IMG/VR virus record: IMGVR_UViG_3300021962_000022
Length of the DNA stretch: 64,000 bases
Reading direction: 5' to 3' (one strand)
Source of the DNA: a virus
Taxonomy: Duplodnaviria; Caudoviricetes
Shown: positions 6,172 to 64,000 of the stretch, piece after piece
How the letters are laid out: every line of letters starts with the position of its first letter
Position numbering within the stretch: the stretch's first letter is position 1
The notes under the pieces: model-generated
What the model saw: the letters and a program-made list of their open reading frames with translations, nothing else
What the model was told of the DNA's origin: nothing
Databases searched by the model: none
Translations under genes and position numbers: made by a program

Positions 6172-6179
6172 TATAAATA
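6172..6179 (-). promoter_or_regulatory. Putative late promoter motif TATTTATA
   Basis: Exact motif 16 nt upstream of the ATG at 6155. Confidence 0.6.
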
Positions 6180-9100: not shown

Positions 9101-12100
9101 TGTTCTACTTGGTGTAATTGACGGAGTTACAGAACTACTTGGAGTTACAGAAGGAGTAACCGATGAAGTGATACTCGGAGTTACTGAAGACGATGGTGTT
9201 ATTGAAGGTGTTGTACTTGGTGTGATAGAAGGTGTTACGGAACTTGATGGTGTAACGGAAGGTGTTAATGATGGTGTAACTGACGGTGTAACACTTGAAG
9301 TTGGTGTAATTGACGGGGTTACCGATGGAGTTACCGATGGGGTAACACTTGATGTCGGTGTAACACTTGGTGTCCTACTTGGTGTAACTGATGGTGTCAC
9401 AGATGAAGTTGCAGTTACTGAAGGTGTTGTACTTGGTGTGATAGAAGCCGTCACAGATGGTGTTACAGAACTACTTGGAGTTACAGAAGGTGTTGTACTT
9501 GGTGTTATTGAAGAAGTTACCGACGGAGTTACAGAACTACTTGGGGTAACTGAAGGTGTTCTCGATGAAGTGACAGAAGGTGTTACAGAAGATGTTGGTG
9601 TAACAGAAGGTGTTACAGAAGGAGTCACGGATGGTGTAACCGAACTACTTGGAGTTACTGATGGTGTTGTACTTGGTGTAAGTGATGGGGTAACAGAACT
9701 TGTAGGAGTAACCGAACTAGTAACACTTGGTGTGAGAGATGGTGTAACCGAACTACTTGGTGTAACTGAAGGTGTTGTACTTGGTGTAAGTGATGGAGTA
9801 ACTGAGCTACTTGGGGTTACAGAAGGAGTAACACTTGGTGTAACTGAGCTCGTAACACTTGGAGTAACTGATGGTGTAACACTTGGTGTAACTGAGCTCG
9901 TAACACTTGGAGTAACTGATGGTGTAACGGAACTACTTGGTGTAACCGAAGGAGTAACAGAACTTGTTACAGAAGGAGTAACAGATGATGTTGCAGTTAC
10001 TGAAGGGGTTACTGAAGGTGTAACTGAAGGTGTTACCGAACTTGTTGCAGTTACCGAAGGGGTTCTTGACGGGGTGACACTCGGTGTAACACTAGAAGTA
10101 GGTGTAACAGATGGAGTAACGGATGGTGTTACTGAACTTGTTATGGATGGTGTTACCGAACTAGTAACTGAAGGAGTAACTGATGGAGTCACACTTGGAG
10201 TTACGGATGATGTTGGTGTTACAGATGATGTCACCGAAGGGGTTATACTCGGTGTAACCGAACTAGTAGGTGTAACGGATGGAGTTACTGATGGTGTAAG
10301 TGATGGTGTAACGGAACTAGTAGATGTTACAGAAGGGGTTACTGATGGTGTAAGTGATGGTGTAACGGAACTAGTAGATGTTACAGAGGGGGTTACTGAA
10401 CTTGTAACACTTGGAGTAACTGAAGACGTTGGTGTTACCGAAGGTGTTACCGAAGGTGTAACCGATGGGGTTACTGAAGAAGTTGGTGTTACTGACGGTG
10501 TTACCGAAGGAGTTACAGAACTTGTTACCGAAGGTGTAACGGAAGGTGTTAAAGATGGTGTTATACTTGGTGTTACTGAAGGTGTTACGGAACTACTTGG
10601 TGTAACACTTGGCGTTCTTGAAGGAGTAACACTTGGTGTAACTGAACTTGTTGGCGTAACTGAACTTGTAACTGACGGGGTTATTGAAGAAGTAACACTT
10701 GGAGTTACGGAACTAGTAACAGATGGAGTGACACTTGGTGTTATAGATGGTGTAACAGAACTTGTGGGTGTTACTGATGGTGTAAGTGATGGAGTAACAG
10801 AAGGTGTTACTGACGATGTCGCGGTTACGGATGGGGTAACAGATGGTGTAAGTGATGGTGTTACCGAACTTGTTGGAGTAACAGATGGTGTAACGGATGG
10901 TGTAACAGAACTAGTAACTGATGGAGTAACCGAACTTGTTACTGAAGGAGTTACACTTGGAGTAATCGATGGAGTTACTGAAGATGTTGGAGTTACAGAA
11001 GGTGTTGTACTTGGTGTAATTGATGGGGTTACAGATGACGTTGCGGTTACGGATGGGGTAACAGATGGTGTAAGTGATGGTGTTACACTTGATGTTACTG
11101 ATGGAGTAACACTTGGTGTTCTTGATGGTGTTATAGATGGTGTAACTGAACTTGTCGGTGTAACTGAACTTGTAACAGATGGTGTGACAGATGGTGTTAC
11201 CGAACTAGTTGCAGTAACCGAAGGAGTAACCGAAGGGGTAACCGACGGAGTAACGGAACTTGTTGGAGTTATAGATGGTGTAACGGAACTAGTAACCGAT
11301 GGAGTTACACTTGATGTTACCGATGGGGTTACACTTGGTGTTACAGAACTTGTTACCGATGGTGTTACTGAACTTGTAACCGAAGGTGTAACAGAACTTG
11401 TAACTGACGGAGTAACAGAAGGTGTTACTGAACTAGTAGGTGTCACTGATGGAGTCACACTTGGTGTTACACTTGGAGTAACAGACGAAGTTGGTGTCAC
11501 AGATGGAGTAACCGATGGTGTTACTGAACTAGTAACCGATGGTGTAACAGACGATGTCACTGATGGAGTCACACTTGGTGTTACACTTGGAGTAACAGAC
11601 GAAGTTGGTGTCACAGATGGAGTAACCGATGGGGTTATACTTGGTGTTACCGAACTTGTTGGAGTTATAGATGGTGTAACGGAACTAGTAACCGATGGAG
11701 TTACACTTGATGTTACCGATGGGGTTACACTTGGTGTTCTTGACGGTGTTATAGATGGTGTCACGCTCGAAGTTGGTGTAACAGATGGAGTTACAGAACT
11801 TGTTACCGAAGGTGTTACAGATGATGTTGGTGTTACTGATGGTGTTACGGAACTTGTAACCGATGGAGTTACAGACGAAGTAACGGATGGAGTCACTGAC
11901 GGAGTAACCGATGGTGTAACCGAACTTGTTGCGGTAACACTTGGTGTCACACTTGAAGTAACGGATGGAGTCACTGAACTTGTTGGTGTTACCGATGGTG
12001 TTACTGATGGAGTTACGCTTGATGTCACTGAAGGTGTTACCGATGGGGTAACTGAAGGTGTTCTTGATGGTGTAACTGATGGTGTTACCGAACTTGTTGG

Positions 12101-15100
12101 AGTAACTGATGAGGTAACTGATGGAGTCACTGAAGAAGTGACCGATGGGGTAATGGATGATGTTGGAGTAACAGATGGTGTAACTGATGGTGTTAGTGAT
12201 GGGGTTACTGAAGACGTTGGGGTTACAGATGGTGTAACACTCGGAGTTATGGAACTCGTTACTGACGGAGTCACTGAACTTGTTACCGACGGTGTTATTG
12301 ATGGTGTTGCCGATGGAGTAACAGAACTTGTCGGAGTTACTGAAGGAGTTACTGATGGTGTTACCGAACTTGTTACGGATGGAGTTACCGAACTTGTAAC
12401 AGACGGAGTAACTGACGATGTCACAGATGGCGTAACACTTGATGTTGGAGTTACTGATGGTGTTACCGAACTAGTAACAGATGGTGTAACTGAACTTGTA
12501 ACAGAAGGAGTAACTGAAGGTGTTCTTGACGGTGTTACAGATGGTGTAACTGATGATGTCGGGGTAACTGATGGAGTTACAGAACTAGTAACCGATGGAG
12601 TTACTGAAGATGTTGGAGTAACAGATGGTGTTACACTTGGTGTTACTGACGCGGTTACTGATGGAGTTACAGATGATGTAACTGATGGGGTAACCGAACT
12701 TGTTACCGAGGGTGTTACTGACGAAGTTGGTGTTACTGACGGAGTTACTGATGGTGTTATACTTGGAGTAACAGAACTTGTTGGGGTTACCGAAGCCGTA
12801 ACAGAAGGTGTTACTGAACTTGTTACCGAAGGTGTTACGGATGATGTTACAGATGGCGTTCTACTTGGTGTAATAGATGGTGTTACGGAACTAGTTGGGG
12901 TAACTGAAGGAGTTACGGATGGGGTAACAGAACTTGTCACCGAAGGTGTTACAGATGGTGTTACGGATGGAGTAACCGATGGTGTAACTGATGGTGTAAC
13001 AGACGAAGTTGGTGTCACAGAAGGTGTAACCGATGGAGTGACACTTGACGTTACTGACGGAGTCACTGAACTTGTTACCGACGGTGTTATTGATGGTGTA
13101 ATAGATGGTGTTACTGAACTAGTTGGGGTAACTGAAGGAGTCACGGATGGGGTTACAGAACTAGTGACAGATGGTGTTACTGAAGGGGTTACAGACGGAG
13201 TAACTGACGAGGTTACAGAAGGGGTTACACTTGATGTTGGAGTAACTGAAGCGGTAACTGACGGTGTTACGGATGGGGTAACAGAACTTGTTACCGAAGG
13301 TGTTACAGATGGTGTAACAGAAGGTGTTACAGAAGATGTTGGTGTAACAGATGGTGTTACTGAAGGTGTTACCGACGGTGTTACAGAACTAGTTGGTGTT
13401 ACTGATGGAGTTACTGAAGGTGTAACGGAACTAGTGACAGATGGTGTTACTGAAGGTGTTACTGATGCGGTTACCGATGGAGTAACTGAAGAAGTTGGTG
13501 TAATCGATGGTGTCACAGACGAAGTTACAGAAGGTGTAACAGAACTTGTTGGCGTTACACTCGGAGTTACTGATGGTGTTATCGAAGGTGTTACTGATGA
13601 TGTAACAGATGGAGTTATACTTGGTGTAACTGAACTTGTAACACTTGGAGTCACAGAACTTGTAGGGGTTACGGATGATGTAACGGAAGGTGTAACCGAT
13701 GGGGTAACTGATGATGTCACCGACGGAGTGATAGACGGAGTCACACTTGATGTCACCGATGGTGTAACTGAACTGGTGGGTGTTACTGACGGTGTAATCG
13801 ATGGTGTAACGGAAGGTGTTATAGAACTAGTTACTGAAGGTGTTACAGAAGGTGTTCTACTTGGTGTTACTGATGGAGTAACGGAACTTGTAGGAGTTAC
13901 CGACGAAGTAACAGAAGGAGTTACTGAACTTGTAACTGATGGAGTTACAGAAGGGGTTAAAGATGGTGTTACAGAACTAGTGACTGACGGTGTTACCGAT
14001 GAAGTTGGTGTTACCGAAGGTGTGACAGATGGAGTAACAGATGATGTCACGGATGGCGTAACGCTTGGGGTAACACTAGGTGTGACTGAAGGTGTTACGG
14101 ATGGGGTTACTGAACTTGTTGGTGTTACAGAAGGTGTGACAGATGGAGTAACAGATGGTGTAACCGATGATGTTACCGATGGAGTAACCGATGGAGTGAC
14201 AGAACTAGTGACTGATGGTGTTACACTCGAAGTAGGTGTTACCGATGGAGTAACTGATGGTGTAACTGAACTTGTAACGGAAGGTGTTACTGAAGGTGTA
14301 AGTGATGGGGTGACTGATGACGTAACTGAAGGAGTCACTGATGATGTTGGGGTAACAGATGATGTTACTGAAGGTGTTACAGAAGGAGTTATCGATGATG
14401 TAACCGATGGTGTTACCGAACTAGTAACAGAAGGGGTTACACTTGGTGTTACTGATGATGTCGGTGTAACACTTGGTGTTCTACTTGGGGTAACTGATGG
14501 AGTTACAGAACTTGTAGGTGTTACTGACGGTGTTAATGATGGCGTAACTGAACTTGTAACAGAAGGTGTAACAGATGGTGTTACCGAACTAGTAACTGAT
14601 GGAGTTACACTTGGAGTTACAGATGATGTGGGTGTTACAGAACTTGTAACCGATGGAGTTACAGAACTAGTGACTGACGGAGTAACCGATGGAGTAACGG
14701 ATGGTGTAACTGAACTCGTAACCGAAGGGGTCACTGAAGAAGTTGGGGTAACAGAGGGTGTTCTACTTGGGGTGATGGATGGGGTGATGGATGACGTAAC
14801 TGAGGGAGTGACACTCGGAGTAACCGATGAAGTCACTGAAGGTGTAACACTCGAAGTAGGTGTCACTGATGGTGTAACCGATGGTGTAACTGATGAAGTA
14901 GGTGTCACTGATGGTGTAACCGATGGTGTAACTGATGAAGTAGGTGTCACTGATGGTGTAACCGATGGTGTAACACTCGAAGTAGGTGTCACTGATGGTG
15001 TAACCGATGGTGTAACACTCGAAGTAGGTGTCACTGATGGTGTAACCGATGGTGTAACTGATGAAGTAGGTGTAACCGATGAAGTCACTGAAGGTGTAAC

Positions 15101-18100
15101 ACTCGAAGTAGGTGTCACTGATGGTGTCACTGATGGTGTAACCGATGGTGTAACTGATGAAGTAGGTGTAACCGATGAGGTAACTGACGGTGTAACAGAA
15201 CTAGTGACCGATGGAGTTACAGAACTTGTTACCGAAGGTGTAATCGAAGGAGTTACCGACGGTGTCACAGACGAAGTTGGTGTTACAGACGGAGTTACAC
15301 TTGGTGTTACAGACGGAGTTACAGACGAAGTTGGTGTTACAGACGGAGTTACACTTGGTGTTACAGACGGAGTTACACTCGATGTTACAGATGGAGTAAC
15401 AGATGGAGTGACAGAACTAGTAACTGATGGAGTCACACTCGATGTTGGGGTAACTGAAGGAGTCACGGATGGGGTAACAGAACTTGTTACCGAAGGTGTT
15501 ACTGACGAAGTTGGTGTTACGGATGGAGTTACCGAAGGGGTAACAGAACTTGTTACCGATGGTGTTACAGAACTAGTAACTGAAGGTGTTAATGATGGTG
15601 TTATTGATGGTGTAACTGATGGAGTGACGCTCGAAGTAGGGGTTACTGATGAGGTGACAGAAGGTGTTACCGAACTAGTAACTGATGGTGTAACTGATGG
15701 GGTTACTGAAGGTGTTACAGAACTAGTAACCGATGGTGTCACACTTGATGTTGGAGTTACTGATGGTGTTGTACTTGGTGTAAGTGATGGGGTTACCGAT
15801 GATGTAGGTGTTACTGAAGGTGTTACCGATGGAGTAACACTTGAAGTAACTGACGGTGTAACGGATGGTGTTACACTTGGGGTAACACTCGATGTTACAG
15901 ATGGGGTCACAGAACTAGTTGGTGTAACAGACGATGTAACCGACGGGGTTATAGAAGGTGTAACTGATGGGGTTACAGAACTAGTAACTGATGGGGTTAC
16001 AGAACTTGTTACACTTGGTGTTACTGATGAGGTTGGAGTCACCGACGGAGTAACCGAAGGAGTAATCGAAGGTGTTACTGAACTAGTTGGTGTGACAGAA
16101 GATGTAACTGATGGTGTAACAGAGGGTGTAACTGATGATGTTGGGGTTACTGATGAAGTTACCGATGGGGTAACAGAACTTGTTACTGAAGGAGTAACCG
16201 AAGAAGTTGGTGTTACGGATGGGGTGACCGAACTAGTGACAGAAGGTGTTACCGATGGAGTGACACTTGAAGTAACTGACGGTGTAACTGAACTACTTGG
16301 GGTAACACTTGGGGTTACTGATGAAGTTACCGATGGTGTAACACTCGATGTCGGAGTTACTGATGGAGTAACAGAACTTGTTACTGACGGAGTTACTGAT
16401 GGTGTAACAGAAGGAGTAACACTCGGAGTTACAGATGATGTAACAGATGGTGTTACTGAACTTGTAGGGGTTACTGAAGGTGTTAGTGAAGCGGTTACCG
16501 ATGGGGTAACTGAACTTGTTGGTGTTACCGATGCGGTAACGGAAGGTGTGATAGATGGAGTAACACTTGGTGTCACCGATGAGGTTACGGATGGGGTAAC
16601 TGATGGTGTTCTACTCGGTGTTACTGACGGTGTAACAGATGATGTTGGTGTTACGGATGGTGTTACACTTGGGGTTACAGATGGTGTTACCGAACTAGTT
16701 GCAGTAACCGAAGGAGTAACTGAAGGTGTTACCGAAGGTGTGACAGAACTTGTAGGAGTAACCGATGAGGTAACAGATGGGGTCACTGATGAAGTTACTG
16801 ATGGAGTAACGCTCGATGTTGGTGTTACTGAAGATGTTACACTTGGTGTTAAGGATGGTGTGACTGATGATGTTACTGAAGGAGTTACTGATGGTGTTAT
16901 ACTTGGGGTTACAGATGATGTAACGGAAGGTGTTACTGACGATGTTGGGGTTACGCTCGGAGTTACGGATGCGGTAATAGATGGTGTTACAGAACTAGTG
17001 ACAGATGGTGTAACACTTGGTGTAACCGATGAGGTAACAGATGGGGTAACTGAACTACTTGGTGTAACGCTTGGTGTCCTCGATGGGGTAATTGATGGTG
17101 TAACAGATGAAGTTGGTGTAACTGACGGAGTAATCGAACTTGTTACAGATGGAGTTATTGAACTTGTTACAGATGGAGTTACAGAACTTGTTACCGAAGG
17201 TGTTAATGATGGTGTTACGGAACTAGTTGGTGTTACTGATGGTGTAAGTGATGGTGTGACAGATGGTGTGATAGATGGTGTAACCGAATTAGTGACTGAT
17301 GGTGTAACGGATGGTGTTACGGAACTCGAAACTGAAGGTGTTAATGATGGTGTAACTGAAGGTGTTAATGACGCGGTTACGGACGGTGTTAAACTTGGTG
17401 TTACTGAAGGTGTTGGTGTACTTGTTGGCGTTGGTGATGGTAACATCGTATAATCAATGTCACATGAAGGTGCTGGTGTAGGGGTTACTGATGGTGTTAA
17501 AGACGGAGTAACCGATGGAGTTACAGAACTAGTTGGTGTAACGCTTGGTGTGACAGATGGAGTTACTGATGGGGTGACAGAACTAGTAATAGAAGGTGTT
17601 ACCGATGAGGTTACACTTGGTGTTACTGAACTTGTAGGTGTAATTGATGGTGTAACGGAACTAGTGACCGAAGGTGTAACCGATGGTGTAACGGAACTAG
17701 TTGGGGTGACTGACGGAGTTCTACTTGGTGTTAGTGATGGTGTAATAGAAGGAGTTACACTTGGAGTAACTGAACTTGTTGGAGTAACACTCGGGGTTAC
17801 AGATGATGTAACAGAAGGTGTTACTGAACTTGTGACAGAGGGTGTTACTGATGGGGTAACAGATGGTGTTACACTTGGTGTTACTGAACTTGTAGGGGTT
17901 ACTGATGGTGTTCTAGATGTCGTAACGGAAGGGGTTACGGAACTAGTTGGTGTTACGGAACTAGTAACAGATGGTGTAACCGACGGCGTTACTGAACTAG
18001 TAACTGACGGAGTAACACTTGGGGTTTCACTTGGAGTAACCGAAGGTGTTTCACTTGGTGTTATCGACGGTGTAACCGAACTAGTAGGTGTAACCGAAGG

Positions 18101-21100
18101 TGTTTCACTTGGAGTGATTGACGGTGTTACAGAACTAGTTAGAGTAATGGAAGGTGTTATACTTGGGGTTACCGATGATGTTACTGAGGGAGTTATAGAT
18201 GGGGTTATACTCGGTGTAACCGATGCGGTGACAGATGGTGTAACTGAACTCGTGGGTGTAACTGATGGAGTTACCGATGCGGTGACAGATGGTGTAACTG
18301 AACTAGTAACACTTGGAGTAACGGATGCTGTAACTGAAGGTGTTATACTTGGTGTAACAGAACTAGTTGGGGTTACAGATGGAGTTTCACTTGGTGTTAT
18401 CGACGGTGTTATACTTGGTGTAACAGACGCAGTAACTGATGGAGTTATACTTGGTGTAACAGACGCAGTAACAGATGGTGTTACCGAACTAGTGGGTGTA
18501 ACCGAAGGTGTTTCACTTGGAGTTATACTTGGTGTAACAGAACTAGTGACTGATGGTGTAACACTTGCGGTAACGGAAGGTGTCACTGATGGTGTAACCG
18601 ATGCGGTAACTGATGGTGTTATACTTGGTGTAACGGAACTAGTAACAGATGGTGTCACCGAAGGTGTAACAGATGATGTCGGTGTAACACTTGGTGTTTC
18701 ACTTGGAGTTATACTTGGTGTAACTGATGATGTCGGTGTAACACTTGGTGTTTCACTTGGAGTTATACTTGGTGTAACTGACGGAGTAACACTTGATGTT
18801 GGAGTTACAGATGGGGTTATACTTGGAGTTACCGATGCAGTAACCGACGGTGTAACCGAACTAGTTGGTGTAACAGATGGAGTTTCACTTGGTGTGATAC
18901 TTGGTGTAACGGAACTAGTAACAGATGGGGTTATACTTGGAGTTACCGATGCAGTAACCGACGGTGTTACTGAACTAGTTGGGGTTACAGATGGAGTTTC
19001 ACTTGGTGTTATCGACGGTGTTACGGAACTGGTTGGTGTAACTGAACTAGTAACACTAGGTGTTATACTTGGTGTAACTGAACTAGTAGGTGTAACACTT
19101 GGTGTAACGCTTGGTGTTACGGATGAAGTAACCGAAGGTGTAACTGAACTAGTCGGTGTAACACTTGGTGTTTCACTAGGTGTAACCGATGCGGTAACAG
19201 ATGGTGTTACTGAACTAGTAGGTGTAACACTTGGTGTTTCACTTGGTGTGATTGATGGTGTTATACTTGGTGTAACGGATGATGTTGGGGTTACAGATGG
19301 AGTTTCACTTGGAGTTATACTTGGAGTAACCGACGGTGTAACTGAACTAGTTGGTGTAACAGATGGAGTTTCACTTGGTGTGATACTTGGAGTTATACTT
19401 GGAGTAACTGATGATGTTGGTGTGATAGATGGTGTAACTGAACTAGTAACTGATGGAGTTACAGAACTTGTTGGGGTTATAGACGGAGTTTCACTAGGAG
19501 TGATTGACGGTGTTATACTTGGTGTAACTGATGAAGTAACAGATGGGGTTACTGATGGTGTTACTGAACTAGTGACACTTGGAGTAACTGAACTAGAGGG
19601 TGTAACCGAAGGTGTTGCACTTGGTGTTATACTTGGTGTAACTGATGATGTTGGTGTGACTGATGGAGTTACAGAACTAGTAACTGACGGAGTAACACTT
19701 GATGTTGGTGTAACACTTGGTGTTTCACTTGGAGTGATTGATGGTGTTATACTTGGTGTAACGGAACTAGTAACACTAGGTGTTATACTTGGTGTAACTG
19801 AACTAGTAACAGATGGTGTTACCGATGGTGTTTCACTTGGTGTTATACTTGGTGTAGCAGATGGTGTTACTGAACTAGTAGGTGTAACACTTGGTGTTTC
19901 ACTTGGTGTAACGGAACTAGTAACAGATGGTGTTATTGAAGGAGTTACAGAACTAGTGACTGATGGAGTTACTGAACTTGTCACACTTGGTGTAAGTGAT
20001 GGGGTAACAGAACTTGTTGGAGTTACGGAAGGTGTGATTGATGGTGTAACTGAAGGTGTTCTTGAGGGTGTTAAACTTGGTGTTACAGATGAACTTACAG
20101 ATGGAGTAACCGAACTTGTAACCGAAGGGGTTACGGAACTAGTTGGTGTTACGGAACTAGTAACAGATGGTGTTATTGAAGGAGTTACGGAAGGTGTTAA
20201 TGATGGTGTTACAGATGATGTTACAGAAGGGGTTACCGAAGGTGTTACAGAAGGTGTAACTGATGACGTTGGTGTTACGGAACTAGTAATCGATGGGGTT
20301 ACACTTGAAGTAACAGATGGTGTAACTGAACTAGTAACTGAAGGTGTTAATGATGGTGTTCTTGATGGTGTAACAGAAGGAGTTACGGATGAGGTTGGTG
20401 TAACCGATGAGGTAACCGATGGTGTAACCGAACTAGTAACTGAAGGGGTTACCGAGCTCGTTACTGATGGAGTAACACTTGAAGTTACAGAAGGAGTTAC
20501 GGAAGGTGTTATACTCGAGGTTGGGGTTACTGACGGTGTCAATGATGGTGTAACGGAACTAGTGACCGAAGGTGTAACCGATGGTGTAACTGATGGAGTG
20601 ACACTTGGTGTAATCGATGGGGTAACAGATGATGTTGGGGTGACTGACGGTGTTATACTTGGTGTAATTGATGGGGTTACCGATGATGTAGGTGTTACTG
20701 AAGGTGTTACCGATGGAGTGACACTTGAAGTAACTGACGGTGTAACGGATGGTGTTACACTTGGAGTCAATGAACTTGTAACTGATGGTGTTACAGATGA
20801 TGTCGGAGTTACTGATGGAGTAACAGAGGGTGTAACAGAACTAGTAACTGATGGTGTTACTGATGGTGTTAGTGATGGTGTAACTGAACTTGTAACAGAA
20901 GGTGTTACCGATGGTGTAACTGAACTAGTGACCGAAGGTGTAACCGATGGAGTTACAGACGAAGTTGGGGTTACACTTGGTGTGATTGACGGGGTAACCG
21001 AAGGGGTTACAGAACTAGTAACACTTGGAGTTACGGAACTGGTAACAGATGGTGTTACCGATGGAGTTACAGATGATGTTGGTGTTACTGAAGGGGTTAC

Positions 21101-22195
21101 TGAACTTGTTATCGATGGTGTTAATGATGGGGTTACTGAACTTGTTGGTGTTACAGAGCTTGTAACTGACGGTGTAACACTTGAAGTAATTGATGGTGTA
21201 ACACTCGGAGTTACGGAACTTGTTGGAGTTACAGATGGTGTGACTGATGGTGTGATAGATGGTGTAACCGAACTAGTAGGTGTAACTGATGGAGTTACTG
21301 AAGCGGTTATAGATGGAGTCACTGAACTCGTAACAGATGGTGTAACGGAACTTGTTGGGGTTATAGATGGTGTTAAAGACGGAGTAACCGATGGTGTAAC
21401 TGATGGAGTTACTGAACTTGTTGGTGTAACAGAACTAGTAACAGATGGTGTTACTGAAGAAGTTGGTGTAACAGATGTGGTAACCGATGGTGTTACTGAA
21501 GGTGTAACCGACGAAGTTGGTGTTACAGACGGAGTCTCACTTGGAGTTAACGACGGTGTTAAACTTGGTGTTACTGAAGAAGTTGGTGTAACAGATGTGG
21601 TAACCGATGGTGTGATAGAAGGAGTAACTGATGGTGTAACACTTGGAGTAACTGAACTTGTTGGTGTTACACTTGGAGTCTCTGAAGGTGTAATAGATGG
21701 AGTTACAGAGCTAGTGGGTGTGATTGATGGTGTAATCGAGCTAGTTGGAGTTACAGAAGGTGTAACTGATGGTGTAACATCTGGTGTTCTTGTTGGTGTA
21801 ACCGATGGGGTTGGGGTAATTGAACTCGTTGGAGTAACTGATGGAGTCACTGATGGAGTTGAAGTTACTGATGGGGTTGTTGTGACAGTTGGTGTTACTG
21901 AAGGTGTGGTTGTGACAGTTGGTGTAACAGGAGGTGTACTTTGTGGTGTTGGCGTTAAACTTGGTGTAACAGAAGGTGTAATTGAAGGTGTTGGGGATGG
22001 ACAATTAATTGCCGCGTAACATGTTTTGTCATGCGATGGAAAATAAACTGAATAGGTTCCTAAGTAATAAGTTGTGTCGTAATAATACGGCATCACAACA
22101 GTACCTAAATTAATGGTACCGCCAGTACAGGGATAAAATGTGATAACACCAATTTCACCATCAAAATTACCTGTGTTTATCTTTATTAATGCCAT
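6200..22195 (-). CDS. 5331-aa giant mucin-like (TPSV/TSSV repeat) protein with N-terminal domain and C-terminal Cys-rich modules
   Basis: Uninterrupted 16-kb ORF with plausible non-repetitive N- and C-termini, a dedicated upstream promoter, and synonymous variation concentrated at wobble positions of this frame. Confidence 0.85.
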   Translation of the reverse strand: MALIKINTGNFDGEIGVITFYPCTGGTINLGTVVMPYYYDTTYYLGTYSVYFPSHDKTCYAAINCPSPTPSITPSVTPSLTPTPQSTPPVTPTVTTTPSVTPTVTTTPSVTSTPSVTPSVTPTSSITPTPSVTPTRTPDVTPSVTPSVTPTSSITPSITPTSSVTPSITPSETPSVTPTSSVTPSVTPSVTPSITPSVTTSVTPTSSVTPSLTPSLTPSETPSVTPTSSVTPSVTPSVTTSVTPTSSVTPSVTSSVTPTSSVTPSVTPSVTPSLTPSITPTSSVTPSVTSSVTPSITASVTPSVTPTSSVTPSITPSVTPSVTPTSSVTPSVTPSITSSVTPSVTSSVTPTSSVTPSLTPSITSSVTPSVTPTSSVTPSVTPSVTSSVTPSVTSSVTPSVTPSITPSVTPTSSVTPSVTPSVTSSVTPSVTPSVTSSVTPSLTPSVTPSVTSSVTPSVTPSVTPTSSVTPSVTSSLTPSVTPSVTPSVTSSVTPSVTPSVTPTSSVTPSITPSITPSVTPTSSVTPSITPSVTPSVTPSVTPSVTSSVTPSLTPSVTPTSSITPSVTPSVTSSVTPSVTSSVTPSVTSSVTPSVTSSVTPTSSVTPSVTPSRTPSLTPSVTSSVTPSVTSSVTPSITSSVTPTSSVTPSVTPSVTPSVTSSVTPSLTPSVTPSITPSVTSSVTPTSSVTPSVTSSVTPSVSSSVTPSLTPSRTPSVTPSITPSVTPTSSVTPSLTPSVTSSVTPSVTSSVTPSITPSVTSSVTPSETPSVTPTSSVTPSATPSITPSETPSVTPSVTSSVTPSITPSVTSSVTPSITPSITPSETPSVTPTSSVTPSVTSSVTPSVTPTSSVTPSITPSATPSVTPSSSVTPSVTSSVTPSVTPSVTSSVTPSITPSITPSETPSITPTSSVTPSVTSSVTPSITPTSSVTPSITPSITPSETPSVTPTSSVTPSVTPSITPSETPSVTPTSSVTPSITPSITPSETPSVTPTSSVTPSVTASVTPSETPSVTPTSSVTPSVTSSVTPSVTPSVTPTSSVTPSITPSVTSSVTPTSSVTPSITPSETPSVTPTSSVTPSVTASVTPSITPSVTSSVTPSITPSETPSVTPTSSVTPSVTASVTPSITPSVTPTSSVTPSVTPSITPSETPSVTPTSSVTPSITPSETPSVTPTSSVTPSVTPSVTSSVTPSITPSVTASVTPSVTPSVTASVTPSVTSSVTPSITPSETPSVTPTSSVTPSVTASVTPSITPSVTASVTPSITPSITPSETPSVTPTSSVTPSITPSVTASVTPSVTSSVTPSVTASVTPSVTPTSSVTPSVTASVTPSITPSITPSVTSSVTPSITPSITLTSSVTPSITPSETPSVTPTSSVTPSITPSETPSVTPSETPSVTPSVTSSVTPSVTPSVTSSVTPTSSVTPSVTTSRTPSVTPTSSVTPSVTPSVTPSVTPSVTSSVTPSVTSSVTPSVTPTSSVTPSVTPSITPSLTPSRTPSVTPTSSVTPSVTPSVTSSVTPSITPTSSVTPSVTSSVTPSITSSVTPSVTPSVTPSVTPTSSVTPSVTPSLTPSVTPTPAPSCDIDYTMLPSPTPTSTPTPSVTPSLTPSVTASLTPSVTPSLTPSVSSSVTPSVTPSVTNSVTPSITPSVTPSLTPSVTPTSSVTPSLTPSVTSSVTPSVTSSITPSVTSSITPSVTPTSSVTPSITPSRTPSVTPSSSVTPSVTSSVTPSVTPSVTSSVTPSITASVTPSVTPTSSVTPSVTSSVTPSITPSVTPSVTSSVTPSLTPSVTSSVTPTSSVTPSVTSSVTPSVTSSVTPTSSVTPSVTPSVTPSVTATSSVTPSVTPSVTPSVTPTSSVTPSVTPSRTPSVTPSVTSSVTPSVTPSITPSVTASVTPTSSVTPSVTASLTPSVTPTSSVTPSVTSSVTPSVTPSVTPSVTPSVTSSVTPSVTPTSSVTPSVTSSVTPSVTPSSSVTPSVTSSVTPSVTPSVTSSVTPSVTPTSSVTPSVTSSVTPSVTSSVTPTSSVTPSVTPSVTSSVTPTSSVTPSITPSVTPSVTPTSSVTPSVTSSVTPSVTSSVTPSVTPSITPSVTSSVTPTSSVTPSVTSSVTPSVTPSVTPSVTSSVTPSVTPSVTPTSSVTPSLTPSTTPSVTPTSSVTPSVTSSVTPSVTPSVTPSVTSSVTPSVTSSVTPTSSVTPSVTPSITPSLTPSVTSSVTPSVTSSVTPSVTPSVTPTSSVTPSVTSSVTPSVTPSVTPTSSVTPSVTSSVTPSVTPSVTSSVTPSVTPSVTPSVTPTSSVTPSVTPSVTPSVTPTSSVTPSVTPSITPSVTSSVTPSVTSSVTPSVTSSVTPTSSVTPSVTPSVTPSVTPTSSVTPSVTSSVTPTSSVTPSVTPSVTPTSSVTPSVTPSVTPTSSVTPSVTPSVTPTSSVTPSVTPSVTPTSSVTPSVTPSVTPTSSVTPSVTSSVTPSVTPSVTSSITPSITPSRTPSVTPTSSVTPSVTSSVTPSVTPSVTPSVTSSVTPSVTSSVTPTSSVTPSVTPSVTSSVTPSVTPSVTSSVTPSLTPSVTPTSSVTPSVTPSRTPSVTPTSSVTPSVTPSVTSSVTPSVTSSITPSVTPSVTSSVTPTSSVTPSVTSSVTPSLTPSVTPSVTSSVTPSVTPSVTPTSSVTPSVTSSVTPSVTPSVTSSVTPSVTPSVTPSVTPTSSVTPSVTPSVTPSVTPSVTPSVTSSVTPSVTPSVTPTSSVTPSVTSSVTPSLTPSVTPSVTSSVTPSVTSSVTPTSSVTPSVTPSRTPSVTPSVTSSITPSVTPSITPSVTPTSSVTPSVTSSVTPSITPSVTSSVTPSVTPSVTSSVTPTSSVTPSVTSSVTPSITPSVTSSVTPSITPSVTPSVTPTSSVTPSVTSSVTPSITPTSSVTPSVTASVTPSVTPSVTSSVTPSVTPSVTPTSSVTPSVTPSVTPSVTPTSSVTPSVTPSVTPSVTSSVTPSVTPSVTASVTPTSSVTPSVTSSVTPSVTPSVTPSVTSSVTPSVTPSVTPTSSVTPSITPSITPSVTSSVTPSVTSSVTPSVTPSVTPTSSVTPSVTPSVTPSVTPSVTPSVTSSVTPSVTPSVTPTSSVTPSITPSRTPSVTSSVTPSVTSSVTPSVTASVTPTSSVTPSITPSVTPSVTPTSSVTPSVTSSVTPSVTSSVTPSVTASVTPSVTPSVTPTSSVTPSVTSSVTPSVTPTSSVTPSVTPSRTPSVTPSVTSSVTPSVTSSVTPSVTPTSSVTPSVTSSVTPSVTSSVTPSVTSSVTPSVTPSVTPTSSVTPSATPSITPSVTSSVTPSVTSSITPSVTPSVTPTSSVTPSLTPSVTPSVTPTSSITPSVTSSVTPSVTSSVTPTSSVTPSVTPSRTPSVTPSVTPSVTSSVTPSVTPSVTPTSSVTPSVTSSVTPSVTATSSVTPSVTPSVTPSVTSSVTPSVTSSVTPSVTPTSSVTPSVTSSVTPSVTPTSSVTPSITPSRTPSVTPSVTSSVTPSVTSSVTPSITPTSSVTPSITPSVTPSVTPTSSVTPSVTPSVTPSVTSSVTPSVTSSVTPSVTPSVTPTSSVTPSVTPSVTPSVTPTSSVTPSVTPSVTSSVTPSVTSSVTPSVTSSVTPSVTPSVTSSVTPSVTSSVTPSITPTSSVTPSVTPSVTPSVTATSSVTPSVTPSVTSSVTPTSSVTPSITPSRTPSVTPSVTSSVTPSLTPSVTPSVTATSSVTPSITPSTTPSVTPTSSVTPSITPSVTPSVTSSVTPSVTSSVTPSVTPSVTPTSSVTPSLTPSVTPSVTATSSVTPSVTPSLTPSVTPTSSVTPSITPSVTPSVTSSVTPSVTSSITPSVTSSVTPTSSVTPSVTPSRTPSVTPSSSVTPSVTPSITPSLTPSVTPSVTSSVTPSVTPSVTPTSSVTPSVTPSVTPSVTPTSSVTPSVTSSVTPSVTSTSSVTPSLTPSVTPSVTSTSSVTPSLTPSVTPSVTPTSSVTPSITPSVTSSVTPTSSVTPSVTPSVTPSVTSSVTPSITSSVTPSVTPSVTPTSSVTPSVTPSRTPSVTATSSVTPSVTPSVTPSVTATSSVTPSVTSSVTPSVTPSSSVTPSVTPSVTSSVTPSVTPSVTPSVTSSVTPSVTPSVTPSSSVTPSLTPSTTPSVTPSSSVTPSLTPSVTSSVTPTSSVTPSLTPSTTPSVTPSSSVTPSVTPSVTPSVTPTSSVTPSVTSSRTPSVTPSSSVTPSVTSSITPSTTPSVTPSSSVTPSVTASITPSTTPSVTATSSVTPSVTPSRTPSVTPTSSVTPSVTPSVTPSITPTSSVTPSVTPSLTPSVTPSSSVTPSITPSTTPSITPSSSVTPSITSSVTPSVTPSSSVTPSITPSRTPSVTPTSSVTPSVTPSVTPSVTATSSVTPSVTPSLTPSVTPSSSVTPSITPSTTPSVTPTSSVTPSVTPSVTPSVTATSSVTPSITPSTTPSVTPTSSVTPSRTPEPTSSVTPSVTPSRTASVTPSLTPSVTPTSSVTPSVTSSVTPSVTPTSSVTPSVTSSVTPSVTPSVTPSVTSSVTPSVTSSVTPTSSVTPSVTPSVTPSVTPTSSVTPSVTPTPSRTPDPTRSVTPSVTPTSSITPSVTSSVTPTSSVTPSVTPTVTPTSSVTPSVTPSVTPSSSVTPSVTPTVTPSTVIVSVQTQSCCDNNIYNINMTQGDFNYITGNPGIYPFGGTCYQSFVLIANGAYPFYTLASSKFADCASCNAVFTCPTPSPTPTSSVTATPSRTPSLTPSRTPSVTPSITPSLTPTSSVTASITPSTTPSVTPSSSVTPSITPSTTPSVTPSSSVTPSITPSTTPSVTATSSVTPSITPSRTPSVTPSSSVTPSITPSTTPSVTPSSSVTPDPTRSVTPSVTPTSSVTPSVTPTPSRTPDPTRSVTPSVTPTSSVTPSVTPSVTPSSSVTPSITPSLTPTSSVTPSPSPQYIGAVFTSCCAGDTTIYQGRVPIGTAIGTVFYIQSAQLCARFDDFGPNTGPIYTSSYGSCEECILETFQNCPSVTPSRTASVTPSITPSVTPSRTPSVTPTPSVTPSLTPSRTASVTPSRTAGASPPPTPSVTPSRTASVTPSVTPSVTPSVTPSVTPTSSVTPSRTASVTPSLTPSVTPSRTPTPSVTPSLTPSVTPSVTPSSSPAAAGVSPTPTPTPSSTPPCDCREWLVTQLNNWNFVSYTDCQGNAQTLSDPAYWEANGGNHELVLCACGAPNVGGFPWTGSVSVIGACDCKCTEINITDRDITDYGQVYMYYQCCDGQFFQRLYTTATTESRCISRVMYLAVFDRGVWYTIPNLGGTSGFSYGVTCCGGAHGCGCEEVC
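8220..22000. repeat. About 13.8-kb low-complexity coding repeat (3-5 aa units: TPSV, TSSV, TPSI, TPSE, TPSR, TPST)
   Basis: Direct reading; repetitive at protein level, degenerate at DNA level. Confidence 0.95.
14853..15062. repeat. Five near-identical 42-bp tandem copies ([14 protein letters not shown])
   Basis: gaagtaggtgtcactgatggtgtaaccgatggtgtaac(tgat/actc) at 14853, 14895, 14937, 14979 and 15021. Confidence 0.9.
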
Positions 22196-35370: not shown

Positions 35371-35378
35371 TATAAATA
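35371..35378 (-). promoter_or_regulatory. Putative late promoter motif TATTTATA
   Basis: Exact motif 7 nt upstream of the ATG at 35363. Confidence 0.6.
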
Positions 35379-58634: not shown

Positions 58635-58642
58635 TATAAATA
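58635..58642 (-). promoter_or_regulatory. Putative late promoter motif TATTTATA
   Basis: Exact motif 6 nt upstream of the ATG at 58628. Confidence 0.6.
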
Positions 58643-60606: not shown

Positions 60607-60614
60607 TATAAATA
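60607..60614 (-). promoter_or_regulatory. Putative late promoter motif TATTTATA
   Basis: Exact motif 3 nt upstream of the ATG at 60603. Confidence 0.55.
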
Positions 60615-61540: not shown

Positions 61541-61572
61541 AAAAAGTAAAGGTCTCCTTTTGAGAGACCTTT
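61541..61572 (-). terminator. Rho-independent terminator after the tail tube gene
   Basis: Stem AAAGGTCTC/GAGACCTTT followed by ACTTTTTTT. Confidence 0.8.
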
Positions 61573-61597: not shown

Positions 61598-62086
61598 TTA
61601 GTAAACTAATATACATCTATCCATTCTCAATGAACAAGTGATAGATGCAATATCATCTCTTGAATAGTCTAGTTCATTAAAGTTTAAGTCGGTGATAAAA
61701 GTACCTTGAAGTATCCATTTTTCAACCACAACCCCCGTTGGGTCTAACATTTCTAATTCAATGTCTTTTTTATAACCAGCAGCATAACCCATACGACCTG
61801 TAACTGATTCTGCGTGTAAACGGAACCACTCCATTAATGCCTGAGCGGCTGAAGGTCCAATTGGGTCTTTGAAGGTTACTCTTATTTCGTTCCATTCAAA
61901 TCTACCAGCAACATATGTTGATGTGTTGATAAACGGAATCGCAACTGAATTAATTTTTGCACTTGGTCTAGCACTTGAGGTTACATACCATTCGTTGATA
62001 CCCAATGATGAGGGAAATCTTAATATGAATCGGTTAACTCTCTTCGGTTCGTAAGGAACCGGCATTTTCATTAATAAATCTGCCAT
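61598..62086 (-). CDS. Tail tube protein (T4 gp19-like), 162 aa
   Basis: EPKRVNRF, YVAGRFEWNEIRVTFKDPI, YKKDIELEMLDPTGVVVEKWILQG. Confidence 0.93.
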   Translation of the reverse strand: MADLLMKMPVPYEPKRVNRFILRFPSSLGINEWYVTSSARPSAKINSVAIPFINTSTYVAGRFEWNEIRVTFKDPIGPSAAQALMEWFRLHAESVTGRMGYAAGYKKDIELEMLDPTGVVVEKWILQGTFITDLNFNELDYSRDDIASITCSLRMDRCILVY

Positions 62087-62127
62087 GTCAATATTTGTTT
62101 TTTATTTTTTTTATTGTTAATCTTTCT

Positions 62128-62135
62128 TATAAATA
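62128..62135 (-). promoter_or_regulatory. Putative late promoter motif TATTTATA
   Basis: Exact motif 41 nt upstream of the tube gene ATG. Confidence 0.6.
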
Positions 62136-62208
62136 TCCTGTATCTGAAAAAACAAAAAAATCTTGTTCATCCCTTGATTATGTCAAAATAATTTCGTATT
62201 TTTTCCAT

Positions 62209-62286
62209 ACTAGTACTAGATGCTAGTAAATATAGAACTAGATTAAATAAACTAGAATAACTAGAATCAAATAAACTAGAACTAGA
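62209..62286. repeat. Non-coding array of eight CTAG-centred motifs (mostly ACTAGA)
   Basis: CTAG at 62210, 62216, 62223, 62238, 62252, 62261, 62276 and 62282. Confidence 0.85.
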
Positions 62287-62366
62287 ATACTGGTGCATAT
62301 ACTGGGTAATTTATAATTTTATTTTTTTTATATTTTAATATTTTTCTGTGGAACAAATAATATCAA

Positions 62367-62382
62367 CGTTTCACGTGGAACA
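62367..62382 (-). promoter_or_regulatory. parS-like centromere site TGTTCCACGTGAAACG
   Basis: 15/16 match to the bacterial chromosomal parS consensus TGTTNCACGTGAAACA; extra half-site TGTGGAACA at 62347-62355. Confidence 0.75.
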
Positions 62383-62407
62383 TAAAATAGGGAGGGTTTC
62401 CCCTCCC
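62383..62407 (-). terminator. Rho-independent terminator after the tail sheath gene
   Basis: GGGAGGG-GAAA-CCCTCCC (GNRA loop) followed by TATTTTA. Confidence 0.88.
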
Positions 62408-62414
62408 CTTTTTA

Positions 62415-64000
62415 TTAGATATTGTCAAATGATGCTCCTGTTGGTGTGATTATGAACTCAACATCGATGAATTCAAGAGCTCTTGTTGGTTTAATATAAA
62501 TTTTACCTCTCAAAGTATTAGCGTCAATGTCCTCAGGGTCGTTTGAAACCGTTACACGGAATTCATATAAACCTCTTTCTCTCTTGATTGCGTCTAATAT
62601 TGGGTTTACCAATCTCAAGAACTCGTTACGAACTTGTTCATCGTTTTGTTCAAATAGTAATCTAACTGCCACCGCTGAAATCAATTTTCTTGCTCTCAAC
62701 AACAATCTTCTTACGTTAATTCTATCCAATGCTGATTCACGAACTTGAAGAGTTTTATTACCCCAAATTATCGTTCCTGTATCTGCGAATGTTGCGATAG
62801 GGTTAATTCGAGCTTTGTATAGGTCATCTCTTTCATCCAAAGTTAATTTCTTGAAAGCTTTGATAGAGTTAACCAAACCTCTTGAGTAACCCGCTACTGC
62901 GAACCAAGGGAAGGATACGTTATCTGTTAATGCGATATTTCTTAATACTTCACCTGTTGGTGGAAGATATAGTTGTACCGCGTTATCCACGTCTCTAACT
63001 TGAATCCAAGGCCAATATGTTGCTGAATAGTTACTATCAATTGCAACTCCGTCCAATGCGTCTATAATTTCGTCAGAAGTACCATAGTTTGGTGGTGATA
63101 TCACATAAAGTGAATCTGCTCTGTCTTCTTCAATCATATCAATTGCGTATGATGTTAAAGAACTATGGTCGTAGAAGTTAATACCCGGTGTTGAGAATAT
63201 ATTGATGTCAACCGCCTCAGGGTTTGCAAAAGTGTCAATACCTTGAGTATATGCGTAGTAGTCAGAGTTTCCTGATACCGTACTAAACACCCCTCCGTTT
63301 GTGGTATTACCACTTGTGTAGGTAGTTTTACCAAAGATATAACCATCACCGTAAGTTCTTACGTTTCTGTAGATATCCCATCCATCAAATCCACCACCTG
63401 CGGCGAATGTGAATTTACGGTAGTTGATGTTTGTTAAAACGTTGTTTGCTCCACCTGTTTGACCTTCTAAATCATATGATGTAGTTAAGAAGGTAGTACC
63501 TGTGATAGTAGATGCGTTTGTTGATAAGTGGAAACCTTTAGTTGTTCCCGCAGCTCCCGTTCCTTTGAATTTAAATAAATCCCTATCGTATGTTGATTTA
63601 TTAACTGGACTTGATAAACCAAAGTAAACCTTTCTCACTTTATCTCCTGAAGATAAAATAGGTGTTCCGTCCGCTTCGTATCCTGTTGTATCACCCGCGT
63701 CATAGAATTCTGTTTTATACATTACTGAACCTAAAGTTTTAGTTCCAAATGATGTGTTGTTCACAAATCCTTTGAAACCGCCAGGGTATGCATCAATCGG
63801 GTGGTCATTGGCCATCGATAACATAATGTATCTTGAACGTAATTCGTATTCACCATCAGATGTACCAACTTTTTTAGCCACATAACCAGGTAGGTCAGGA
63901 TTCATATTACATCTTGAATATTTTTCAAGAACCACAATATTGTCGTCAGTATCATTGAAGTCACGAACAATTAAGTCGAAGTCACCAGTGTTTACATCTA
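62415..64000 (-). CDS. Contractile tail sheath protein (T4 gp18-like), 5'-truncated by the window edge
   Basis: SNYSATYWPW, PWFAVAGYSRG, RDDLYKARINPI, IWGNKTLQ, ALDRINVRRLL, LFEQND; the frame stays open to the window end (DVNTGDFDLIVRDFND...). Confidence 0.96.
   Translation of the reverse strand, partial: DVNTGDFDLIVRDFNDTDDNIVVLEKYSRCNMNPDLPGYVAKKVGTSDGEYELRSRYIMLSMANDHPIDAYPGGFKGFVNNTSFGTKTLGSVMYKTEFYDAGDTTGYEADGTPILSSGDKVRKVYFGLSSPVNKSTYDRDLFKFKGTGAAGTTKGFHLSTNASTITGTTFLTTSYDLEGQTGGANNVLTNINYRKFTFAAGGGFDGWDIYRNVRTYGDGYIFGKTTYTSGNTTNGGVFSTVSGNSDYYAYTQGIDTFANPEAVDINIFSTPGINFYDHSSLTSYAIDMIEEDRADSLYVISPPNYGTSDEIIDALDGVAIDSNYSATYWPWIQVRDVDNAVQLYLPPTGEVLRNIALTDNVSFPWFAVAGYSRGLVNSIKAFKKLTLDERDDLYKARINPIATFADTGTIIWGNKTLQVRESALDRINVRRLLLRARKLISAVAVRLLFEQNDEQVRNEFLRLVNPILDAIKRERGLYEFRVTVSNDPEDIDANTLRGKIYIKPTRALEFIDVEFIITPTGASFDNI

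Follow-up and report, generated by a model that had tools for sequence, protein, structure and literature searches.

A short intergenic element in a 64,000-nt stretch of viral DNA (IMG/VR record IMGVR_UViG_3300021962_000022, Caudoviricetes; the whole stretch is called the window below) resembles two described systems in different ways. The origins oriF and oriG of phage T4 are laid out as a promoter reading into an unwinding region, while T4 oriE contains short direct repeats whose role is not known (PMC3016281). The parH and OF arrays, which are bound by ParG of plasmid TP228, extend over about 100 bp and consist of degenerate 4-bp ACTC boxes with A/T-rich spacers; the boxes are both direct and inverted, function tolerates inversion, and the arrays are sited at a promoter (PMC3130281). 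The element in the window is the gap between the genes for the tail sheath and the tail tube, which holds a cluster of CTAG boxes, a pure A/T tract and a parS site. A sequence-specific protein probably binds the boxes on double-stranded DNA. The gap as a whole is tentatively read as an origin of the T4 oriF/oriG type, that is, a promoter plus an unwinding region, in which the boxes and parS would be accessory.

As at oriF (uvsY) and oriG (gene 34), a promoter-like motif points into about 100-200 bp of A+T-rich, easily melted DNA. The site is surrounded by a T4-related tail module, and the T4 origins likewise lie among other genes, with no initiator gene beside them. T4 has several origins active at the same time, an arrangement that would account for loss in some lineages. 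In T4 the promoters belong to the early class or to the MotA-dependent middle class, whereas the motif found here is a non-canonical one of the Bacteroidota type, and T4 origins have neither a parS nor an array of 5-bp boxes with inverted ends. For the boxes, the closest described architecture is, by analogy, the ParG array, since ACT(A/G)G boxes with A/T-rich spacers also occur here in both orientations. However, their spacing is irregular (6-16 bp) where that of the ParG boxes is fixed at 8 bp, and no ParA-type partner was found in the phages. The omega heptads of pSM19035 and the ParR-parC system of R1 are presumably further likenesses. Bacterial chromosomes offer a third comparison, as their parS sites lie beside oriC and a ParB-type 16-bp palindrome adjoins the candidate origin of the phage. 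The phage differs in having a single such site, in being a jumbo phage of lytic type without a ParB of its own, and in lacking a DnaA-box cluster.

The box array and parS in the sheath-tube gap

The gap sequences of relatives were collected through the tube protein (71 loci) and through a conserved block (a further 37), giving about 89 distinct sequences, and two near-complete relatives, G1 (288 kb; L081-L095) and G2 (310 kb; L096-L111), were taken whole. In the window the gap covers 328 bp (62087-62414) and is the largest between long open reading frames (ORFs), in agreement with the roughly 330 bp given in an earlier description made from the letters of the window (the sequence-only reading). 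Its features are as follows.

62087-62127, minus strand: A-rich leader of the tube mRNA, read from the sequence, without a Shine-Dalgarno site
62128-62135, minus strand: late promoter of the tube gene, TATTTATA on the coding strand
62174-62176 and 62197-62204, plus strand: promoter-like motif formed by blocks 7 and 8 (TTG, 20-nt spacer, TATTTTTT), Bacteroidota-like and aimed into the array
62210-62285, no strand assigned: eight CTAG boxes (ACTAG plus A/T on the plus strand) with A/T-rich spacers between them
62288-62306: two TACTGG boxes, at 62288-62293 and 62300-62305
62307-62345: pure A/T tract of 39 bp, the longest A/T run and the least stable 40-mer of the window
62367-62382, no strand assigned: parS palindrome of host type with the core GTTTCACGTGGAAC at 62368-62381, present as a single copy in the window, G1 and G2
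62389-62408, no strand assigned: G+C-rich hairpin preceded by an A run and followed by a T run, a bidirectional intrinsic terminator according to a terminator scan of both strands

The eight CTAG motifs start at 62210, 62216, 62223, 62238, 62252, 62261, 62276 and 62282 (spacings 6, 7, 15, 14, 9, 15 and 6), and AACTAGA occurs five times within 62236-62286. The sequence-only reading had therefore placed eight irregularly spaced CTAG motifs correctly within 76 bp. At the background density of CTAG, the Poisson probability of at least eight copies in a given 76-bp stretch is about 1e-16, and a chance cluster is excluded. Both TACTGG boxes that had been noticed after the CTAG array are present, but they are exact copies and not degenerate ones. 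The outer of the two, ATACTGGG at 62299-62306, forms a conserved end of the array and reads CCCAGTAT on the tube-sense strand. The A/T tract before parS, estimated earlier at about 40 bp, was recovered as the 39-bp run listed above. Each strand of the gap has an ORF of 43 amino acids; the one on the minus strand (62167-62298) was rejected as a small gene because it is open only in the subgroup of relatives to which the window belongs and because the conserved blocks are read in shifting frames. The statement that the gap holds no credible ORF is upheld on these grounds.

CTAG is rare in the window outside one repetitive giant gene. This 5331-aa ORF (6200-22195, minus strand) contains about 98 of the window's 130 CTAG, all in one reading register with spacings that are multiples of 3, for which reason the ORF is regarded as highly repetitive. 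The homologue of the giant gene in G1 has no such load, and the whole of G1 contains 146 CTAG.

The parS site lies 45-75 bp from the array and is accompanied by an extra half-site, GTGGAACA, at 62348-62355. The palindrome of the window matches the spo0J parS of Bacillus subtilis at 15 of 16 positions. In relatives, one to three heptamers (GTTCCAC/GTGGAAC) form a palindrome of the parS type, and some subclades have none. The consensus 18-mer of the clade, ATGTTCCACGTGGAACAT, was found in more than 120 chromosomal stretches from many phyla, often with several copies per locus (L228-L307); the taxa include Chitinophaga, Mucilaginibacter and Bacteroidales. Because this 18-mer is so widespread, and often clustered, in bacterial chromosomes, the phage site is considered a true ParB site of host type. 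The earlier placement of a parS beside the array is thereby confirmed, as a chromosomal-type variant in one copy per genome. None of the three relatives examined for partition genes (G001-G003) encodes a ParB_N, AAA_31 (ParA-like) or tubulin protein, and a phage-encoded partition system (type Ib locus) was rejected for want of these and of a ParA-type partner.

Uniqueness and conservation among relatives

The sheath-tube gap is the only spot in G1 and G2 with at least five CTAG per 100 bp (146 and 176 CTAG per genome, respectively). Among the 4-bp palindromes of G1, only one is more depleted than CTAG, which has an observed/expected ratio of 0.37 under a Markov model; the ratio for G2 under the same model is 0.60. 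The two conserved blocks of the gap that are not part of the repeats likewise have no second copy in the genome. Conservation of the motifs in relatives had been named as a check by the sequence-only reading, and the module was found in about 89 distinct relatives, so that it is not absent from close ones. Their gap length is held at 250-380 bp, and the tube proteins of module-bearing relatives are 81-100% identical. Distant cultured relatives lack the module and have gaps of only 45 and 94 bp, which makes it an acquisition of the clade.

Followed towards the tube gene, the order of parts is the hairpin terminator with its A run and T run, the parS heptamers, an A/T-rich stretch, the array (starting with CCCAGTAT and ending with ATACTGGG or ATACTAG), block 7, block 8, a variable stretch, the late promoter of the tube gene and its A-rich leader, some 40 nt long. 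Box cores follow the pattern C-Y-R-G (CTAG, CCAG or CTGG) in the context ACT(A/G)G(A/T). In most relatives, a group of four boxes (spacing 8, 6, 9) is separated from a group of three (spacing 6, 7-9) by 27-53 bp of A/T spacer; in the window's subgroup, the centre of the array is filled with extra CTAG boxes every 15 bp or so. At least five C-Y-R-G boxes are present in 72 of 88 distinct relatives (range 2-14), and copy number differs even between near-identical genomes, with 7-10 CTAG at 99-100% tube identity. The array ends are inverted, the outermost cores being exactly complementary in 52 of 78 distinct relatives, and two lineages have CCGG at both ends.

Block 7 has the consensus A6-(C/A)-TACG-A5 (GGAAAAAATACGAAAT in the window) and block 8 is TTGAyAnnnTCAAG. 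The promoter-like motif that they form and the terminator remain in place where the boxes or parS have been lost (L119, L124, L077). A hairpin formed by the palindrome in block 8 was considered and rejected, as its base pairs are often broken in relatives. A 17-mer of block 7 also occurs in GTGCGCCAAGTGTAAAAAAATACGAAAAATTATAACC, a conserved upstream sequence of an unrelated phage group (L125, L128, L144, L149, L150, L156, L157, L159, L174, L179, L187, L189), where it precedes a gene with a Shine-Dalgarno site; this is probably a coincidence.

The boxes as probable protein-binding sites on DNA

Members of the window's subgroup have the oriented form of the box, ACTAGAA, on the plus strand, others have it on the tube-sense strand, and the arrays of some relatives align better to that of the window as the reverse complement. 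A programmed inversion (inverton) was nevertheless rejected: all 77 pairs with similar flanks have the array in the same orientation, and differences occur only between deep lineages. Close relatives never differ, and the orientation differences go back to old rearrangements and not to a working switch. No resolvase was found, and an integrase was found in G2 only, which also disposes of a phage attachment site (attP). The G2 enzyme is a 273-aa tyrosine recombinase (187797-188246, plus strand; Phage_integrase, 4.9e-36) that is not in G1 or G3.

At the RNA level, the array by itself folds equally well on both strands (mean z about -2.7), RNAalifold returned an empty consensus structure across relatives for either strand, and Rfam searches at permissive thresholds gave matches at chance level only. 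The sequence-only reading had allowed for a transcribed 5' untranslated region (UTR) with another function. The tube promoter, however, lies downstream of the array, which puts the array outside the 5' UTR of the tube gene.

Protein binding to double-stranded DNA is thus suggested by box number and orientation that vary by lineage in the absence of a conserved RNA fold or coding frame. It is further suggested by the uniqueness of the array, its conservation against a genome-wide avoidance of CTAG, its independence of strand and its conserved inverted ends. The "nucleoprotein-organising site" proposed from the window fits this picture well: the site is conserved, unique in the genome and has the anatomy of a protein-binding array.

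Promoter classes and the promoter-like motif

Two classes of promoter were recognised in these phages. Those of the early class, TTG-N19/20-TAnnTTTG, are of the Bacteroidota type, three- to fourfold enriched, and located about 20 nt before dozens of small early ORFs. The late class consists of TATTTATA on the coding strand, 3-41 nt upstream of late start codons, and accounts for seven of eight copies in the window; ATATTTAT and TATTTATA are the most enriched 8-mers upstream of ORFs when homopolymers are set aside.

The early-gene regions lie at 212-235 kb in G1 and 236-262 kb in G2, both on the minus strand, with promoters made up of an A run, TTGG, N19-20 and TAtaTTTG. Copies of TATTTATA in the window, all on the minus strand, are found at 900-907, 6172-6179, 35371-35378, 58635-58642, 60607-60614 and 62128-62135. 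They are often only 3-9 nt from the start codon, and several late mRNAs are on that account taken to be leaderless or nearly so.

The motif of blocks 7 and 8 keeps the exact geometry TTG-N20-TA(G/T)TTTTT in 66 of 89 distinct relatives under a strict filter and in 71 of 88 under a loose one. The sequence of the spacer varies, but TTG, the 20-nt spacing and TA(G/T)TTTTT are kept, and 20 nt is also the commonest spacing among the phage's early promoters (45 of 71). On the plus strand the motif reads over the boxes, the A/T tract and parS as far as the hairpin, which relatives keep together with its A and T runs (the T run on the plus strand is a good one). A plus-strand transcript from motif to terminator would measure about 200 nt, and the terminator would end both this transcript and that of the sheath gene. 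A promoter on the plus strand is plausible but would be non-canonical.

The module as a possible replication origin

Judged by nearest-neighbour stability, the weakest 200-bp duplex lies in the gap in all three sequences, G1, G2 and the window. Among 40-mers, the minimum of the whole G2 genome falls in the array and that of the window in the A/T tract, and at scales of 40-100 bp the array or the tract ranks first or second in both. At these finer scales G1 is unexceptional, with 26 regions less stable at 100 bp. The pure A/T run measures 39 bp in the window and 29 bp in G1; the longest in the G2 gap, of 25 bp, is in the tube leader and not at the position of the tract. Of the proposed A/T unwinding element, the low stability of the region is therefore conserved, but the particular tract at 62308-62346 is exceptional in the window only.

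An origin of the T4 oriF/oriG type could work as follows. Early in infection, host RNA polymerase would start at the plus-strand motif and transcribe into the most easily melted DNA, where the RNA would stay annealed as an R-loop and prime DNA synthesis. The boxes would bind an initiator or a regulator, parS would load host ParB onto the copied DNA, and the unit would be silenced at a later stage, when late transcription starts from the tube-sense promoters. In this scheme the activity of the promoter, the R-loop, the bound protein and the firing of an origin are inferred, while uniqueness, conservation, box anatomy, strand independence, low duplex stability and the promoter-like geometry are seen in the sequences. 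An origin is favoured among the explanations considered because it would account for an elaborate unit that is unique in the genome, its frame of promoter-like motif and terminator, the top rank in meltability, the adjacent parS and the tolerated loss in some lineages.

Several observations weigh against it. The boxes are not iterons, as had been supposed: they are 5-7 bp long, spaced by 6-16 bp and of mixed orientation, whereas the iterons of lambda or of plasmids RK2 and R6K are helically phased direct repeats of about 17-22 bp bound by an initiator of the Rep/O type. A literature search on CTAG iterons in phage origins returned nothing relevant. Cumulative GC skew, suggested earlier as a check, tracks gene orientation and has no turn at the element; this tracking makes it a weak test, and the genes on either side of the gap share one orientation. 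No initiator gene adjoins the array, whose neighbours are the sheath and tube genes (no search aimed at Rep families was made), and the distance to the DNA polymerase gene is 11 kb. At its last position the promoter-like motif has T throughout and never the G typical of working early promoters; in these genomes, a place immediately ahead of an ORF is held by 48% of the G-ending matches, compared with 14% of T-ending ones. A position weight matrix built from strict early promoters gave no strong match in the gap, in a test that was biased by a training set in which the final G was fixed. Boxes have been lost by point changes in a few lineages (L077 as against its sister L078, and L119/L124). 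Finally, 35 of 57 distinct relatives have, inside the array, a box fused to the late-promoter core TATTTAT, giving CTAGTATTTAT in the tube sense. Where present, this internal late promoter converges on the plus-strand motif.

A possible operator array and other explanations

The last of these observations leads to a possible explanation that is nearly equal to the origin. The array may be an operator, on which a small DNA-binding protein of phage or host coats the ACT(A/G)G boxes cooperatively and controls late transcription across the boundary between sheath and tube, after the model of ribbon-helix-helix repressors. Its targets would be the internal late promoter of most relatives and the tube promoter downstream. 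Box anatomy matches that of ParG on parH/OF (PMC3130281), including the division of most arrays into four boxes, an A/T spacer and three boxes. The array is 75-160 bp upstream of the tube late promoter, CTAGTATTTAT is tube-sense in far more relatives than the seven that have it antisense, and the decay of boxes in some lineages is what would be expected of an accessory regulatory site. On the other hand, an exact internal late promoter is missing from the subgroup of the window, other late genes including that of the sheath use a bare TATTTATA, and a genome-unique module with a parS for the sake of one gene would go unexplained.

A weak candidate for the binding protein, and a point in favour of the operator, is a conserved, ribbon-helix-helix-like protein encoded divergently just upstream of the sheath gene. 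Nearly all relatives whose contigs reach that far encode this protein of 51-58 aa, with a strand-helix-helix pattern, about 3.3 kb from the array and on the opposite strand. The gene is located as follows.

L084:4542-4718 (= G1 64542-64718) and L001:505-678, minus strand: ribbon-helix-helix-like gene, about 1.3 kb beyond the right end of the window

Its matches are weak (Pfam RepB-RCR_reg 0.0038, ParG 0.012 and Omega 0.06; a PHROG repressor 3e-5; ParG in the Protein Data Bank, 1p94, 0.034; Atlas CopB 0.94 and Arc 0.92), and these weak signals agree on a ribbon-helix-helix fold. The AlphaFold model of the monomer, a coil followed by two helices, is of low confidence (pLDDT 60), and the predicted homodimer scored 0.39 against a mark of 0.42, which counts neither way. 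The 140-bp divergent region that the gene shares with the sheath late promoter contains five AAGATA/TATCTT boxes, two of which bracket the sheath promoter. The protein probably represses the sheath gene as well as its own gene, and the AAGATA boxes are its more likely target. That it binds the CTAG array is doubtful, both because of these boxes in its own promoter region and because L119 retains the protein although its CTAG boxes are gone; the same two facts count against the operator.

A non-coding RNA gene on the plus strand is unlikely. Such an RNA, of about 200 nt with CUAG repeats, might act as a protein sponge or an antisense regulator, for example, and the layout of promoter-like motif, 200-nt interval and intrinsic terminator is indeed conserved. 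The plus-strand RNA of the window folds with z = -3.08, compared with -0.78 for the tube sense, but this value takes in the terminator hairpin, and the array alone folds alike on both strands. The interval between motif and terminator is moreover the most variable part of the gap, its orientation flips would give different RNA motifs in different lineages, and neither an Rfam match nor a consensus structure on either strand was obtained.

Somewhat less probable still is a centromere-like or genome-organising site, in which array and parS together would position, condense or keep the genome through the ParAB or structural maintenance of chromosomes (SMC) proteins of the host. The true chromosomal parS variant so close to the array, the single copy per genome and the use of short-box arrays as centromeres by type Ib partition systems all speak for such a role. 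Against it stand the lack of partition genes described above and the independent loss of parS and boxes in different lineages, and we know of no episomal life style in this clade.

The pac site of phage P1 has 4 + 3 hexamers, and the four and three boxes around an A/T-rich centre resemble that layout by analogy. A P1-type pac site, with box clusters and a methylatable palindrome flanking a cleavage region, is still very improbable. The phages do carry orphan DNA methyltransferases, but the site is flanked by sheath and tube genes with no terminase gene located there, box decay in the living lineages L077 and L119 is not expected of an essential site, and the 99-bp end overlap of G2 looks like the assembly overlap of a permuted or circular genome. 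Hardly credible, lastly, is an array serving as decoy or target of a restriction or modification enzyme specific for CTAG, the alternative raised in the sequence-only reading. It would suit the genome-wide depletion of CTAG but would give the phage a harmful cleavable cluster, and it is opposed by CTAG being exchanged for CCAG or CTGG at fixed positions between conserved flanks and ends, a pattern pointing to a binding protein that reads more than CTAG.

Implications

To our knowledge, the huge uncultured phages of Bacteroidota have so far yielded neither an origin nor a cis-acting control site, and a literature search found no description of this module. It would be either an origin made of promoter and unwinding region or a short-box operator, joined to a parS of host type, in a widespread clade. 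At about 300 bp it is readily recognised, and it is conserved over many phage genomes from lakes and other environments. An origin would provide a handle for building replicons and for tracking infection through copy-number profiles in metagenomes; an operator would add a layer of control to T4-type late genes, which have been thought to need only a bare promoter. In either case the array is a DNA bait for a protein that reads CTAG, a tetranucleotide avoided by the rest of the genome. A more far-reaching idea, held with little confidence, is that the gap is a cassette for replication and inheritance that combines a transcription-primed origin, a centromere-like array and a borrowed host parS. 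If so, a giant and apparently lytic phage of Bacteroidota would copy and keep its genome as an episome, relying on the RNA polymerase and ParAB/SMC of its host with no partition genes of its own.

Source phage and neighbouring genes

All long ORFs of the window are on the minus strand. The genes on either side of the gap are given below together with the terminator that follows the tube gene, which makes the latter a transcription unit of its own.

61548-61572, minus strand: terminator 3' of the tube gene, from the terminator scan
61598-62086, minus strand: tail tube gene (PHROG 4542 tail tube, 9.7e-25)
62415-64000, minus strand, running past the end of the window: 3' part of the tail sheath gene (PHROG 23 tail sheath, 4.7e-52; Pfam Phage_sheath_1 and Phage_sheath_1C)

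A blastn search of the region against cultured phages gave no match, and the closest tube proteins of cultured phages, those of Microcystis phage Mel-JY01 and Flavobacterium phage immuto, are 37-42% identical. Close relatives number in the hundreds in IMG/VR, where the contigs of some measure 200-330 kb. The window is accordingly assigned to an uncultured jumbo myovirus. Its host is very probably a member of the Bacteroidota, given early promoters of the Bacteroidota type and start codons without Shine-Dalgarno sites.

A second candidate cis-acting site was noted in G2, where a 66-bp tandem repeat (231090-231394, 4.6 copies) lies inside a 696-bp gap at which gene orientation turns from plus to minus and cumulative GC skew peaks. 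The repeat has no similarity to a 72-bp repeat of G1 (234079-234276).

Neither the 64-kb window nor the 288-kb G1 has a single GATC, where about 161 and about 800, respectively, would be expected; the 310-kb G2 contains 741 copies. This suggests a GATC-cutting enzyme in the host of the window's lineage. Methyltransferases of the D12 class (Dam-like) are encoded in all three relatives.

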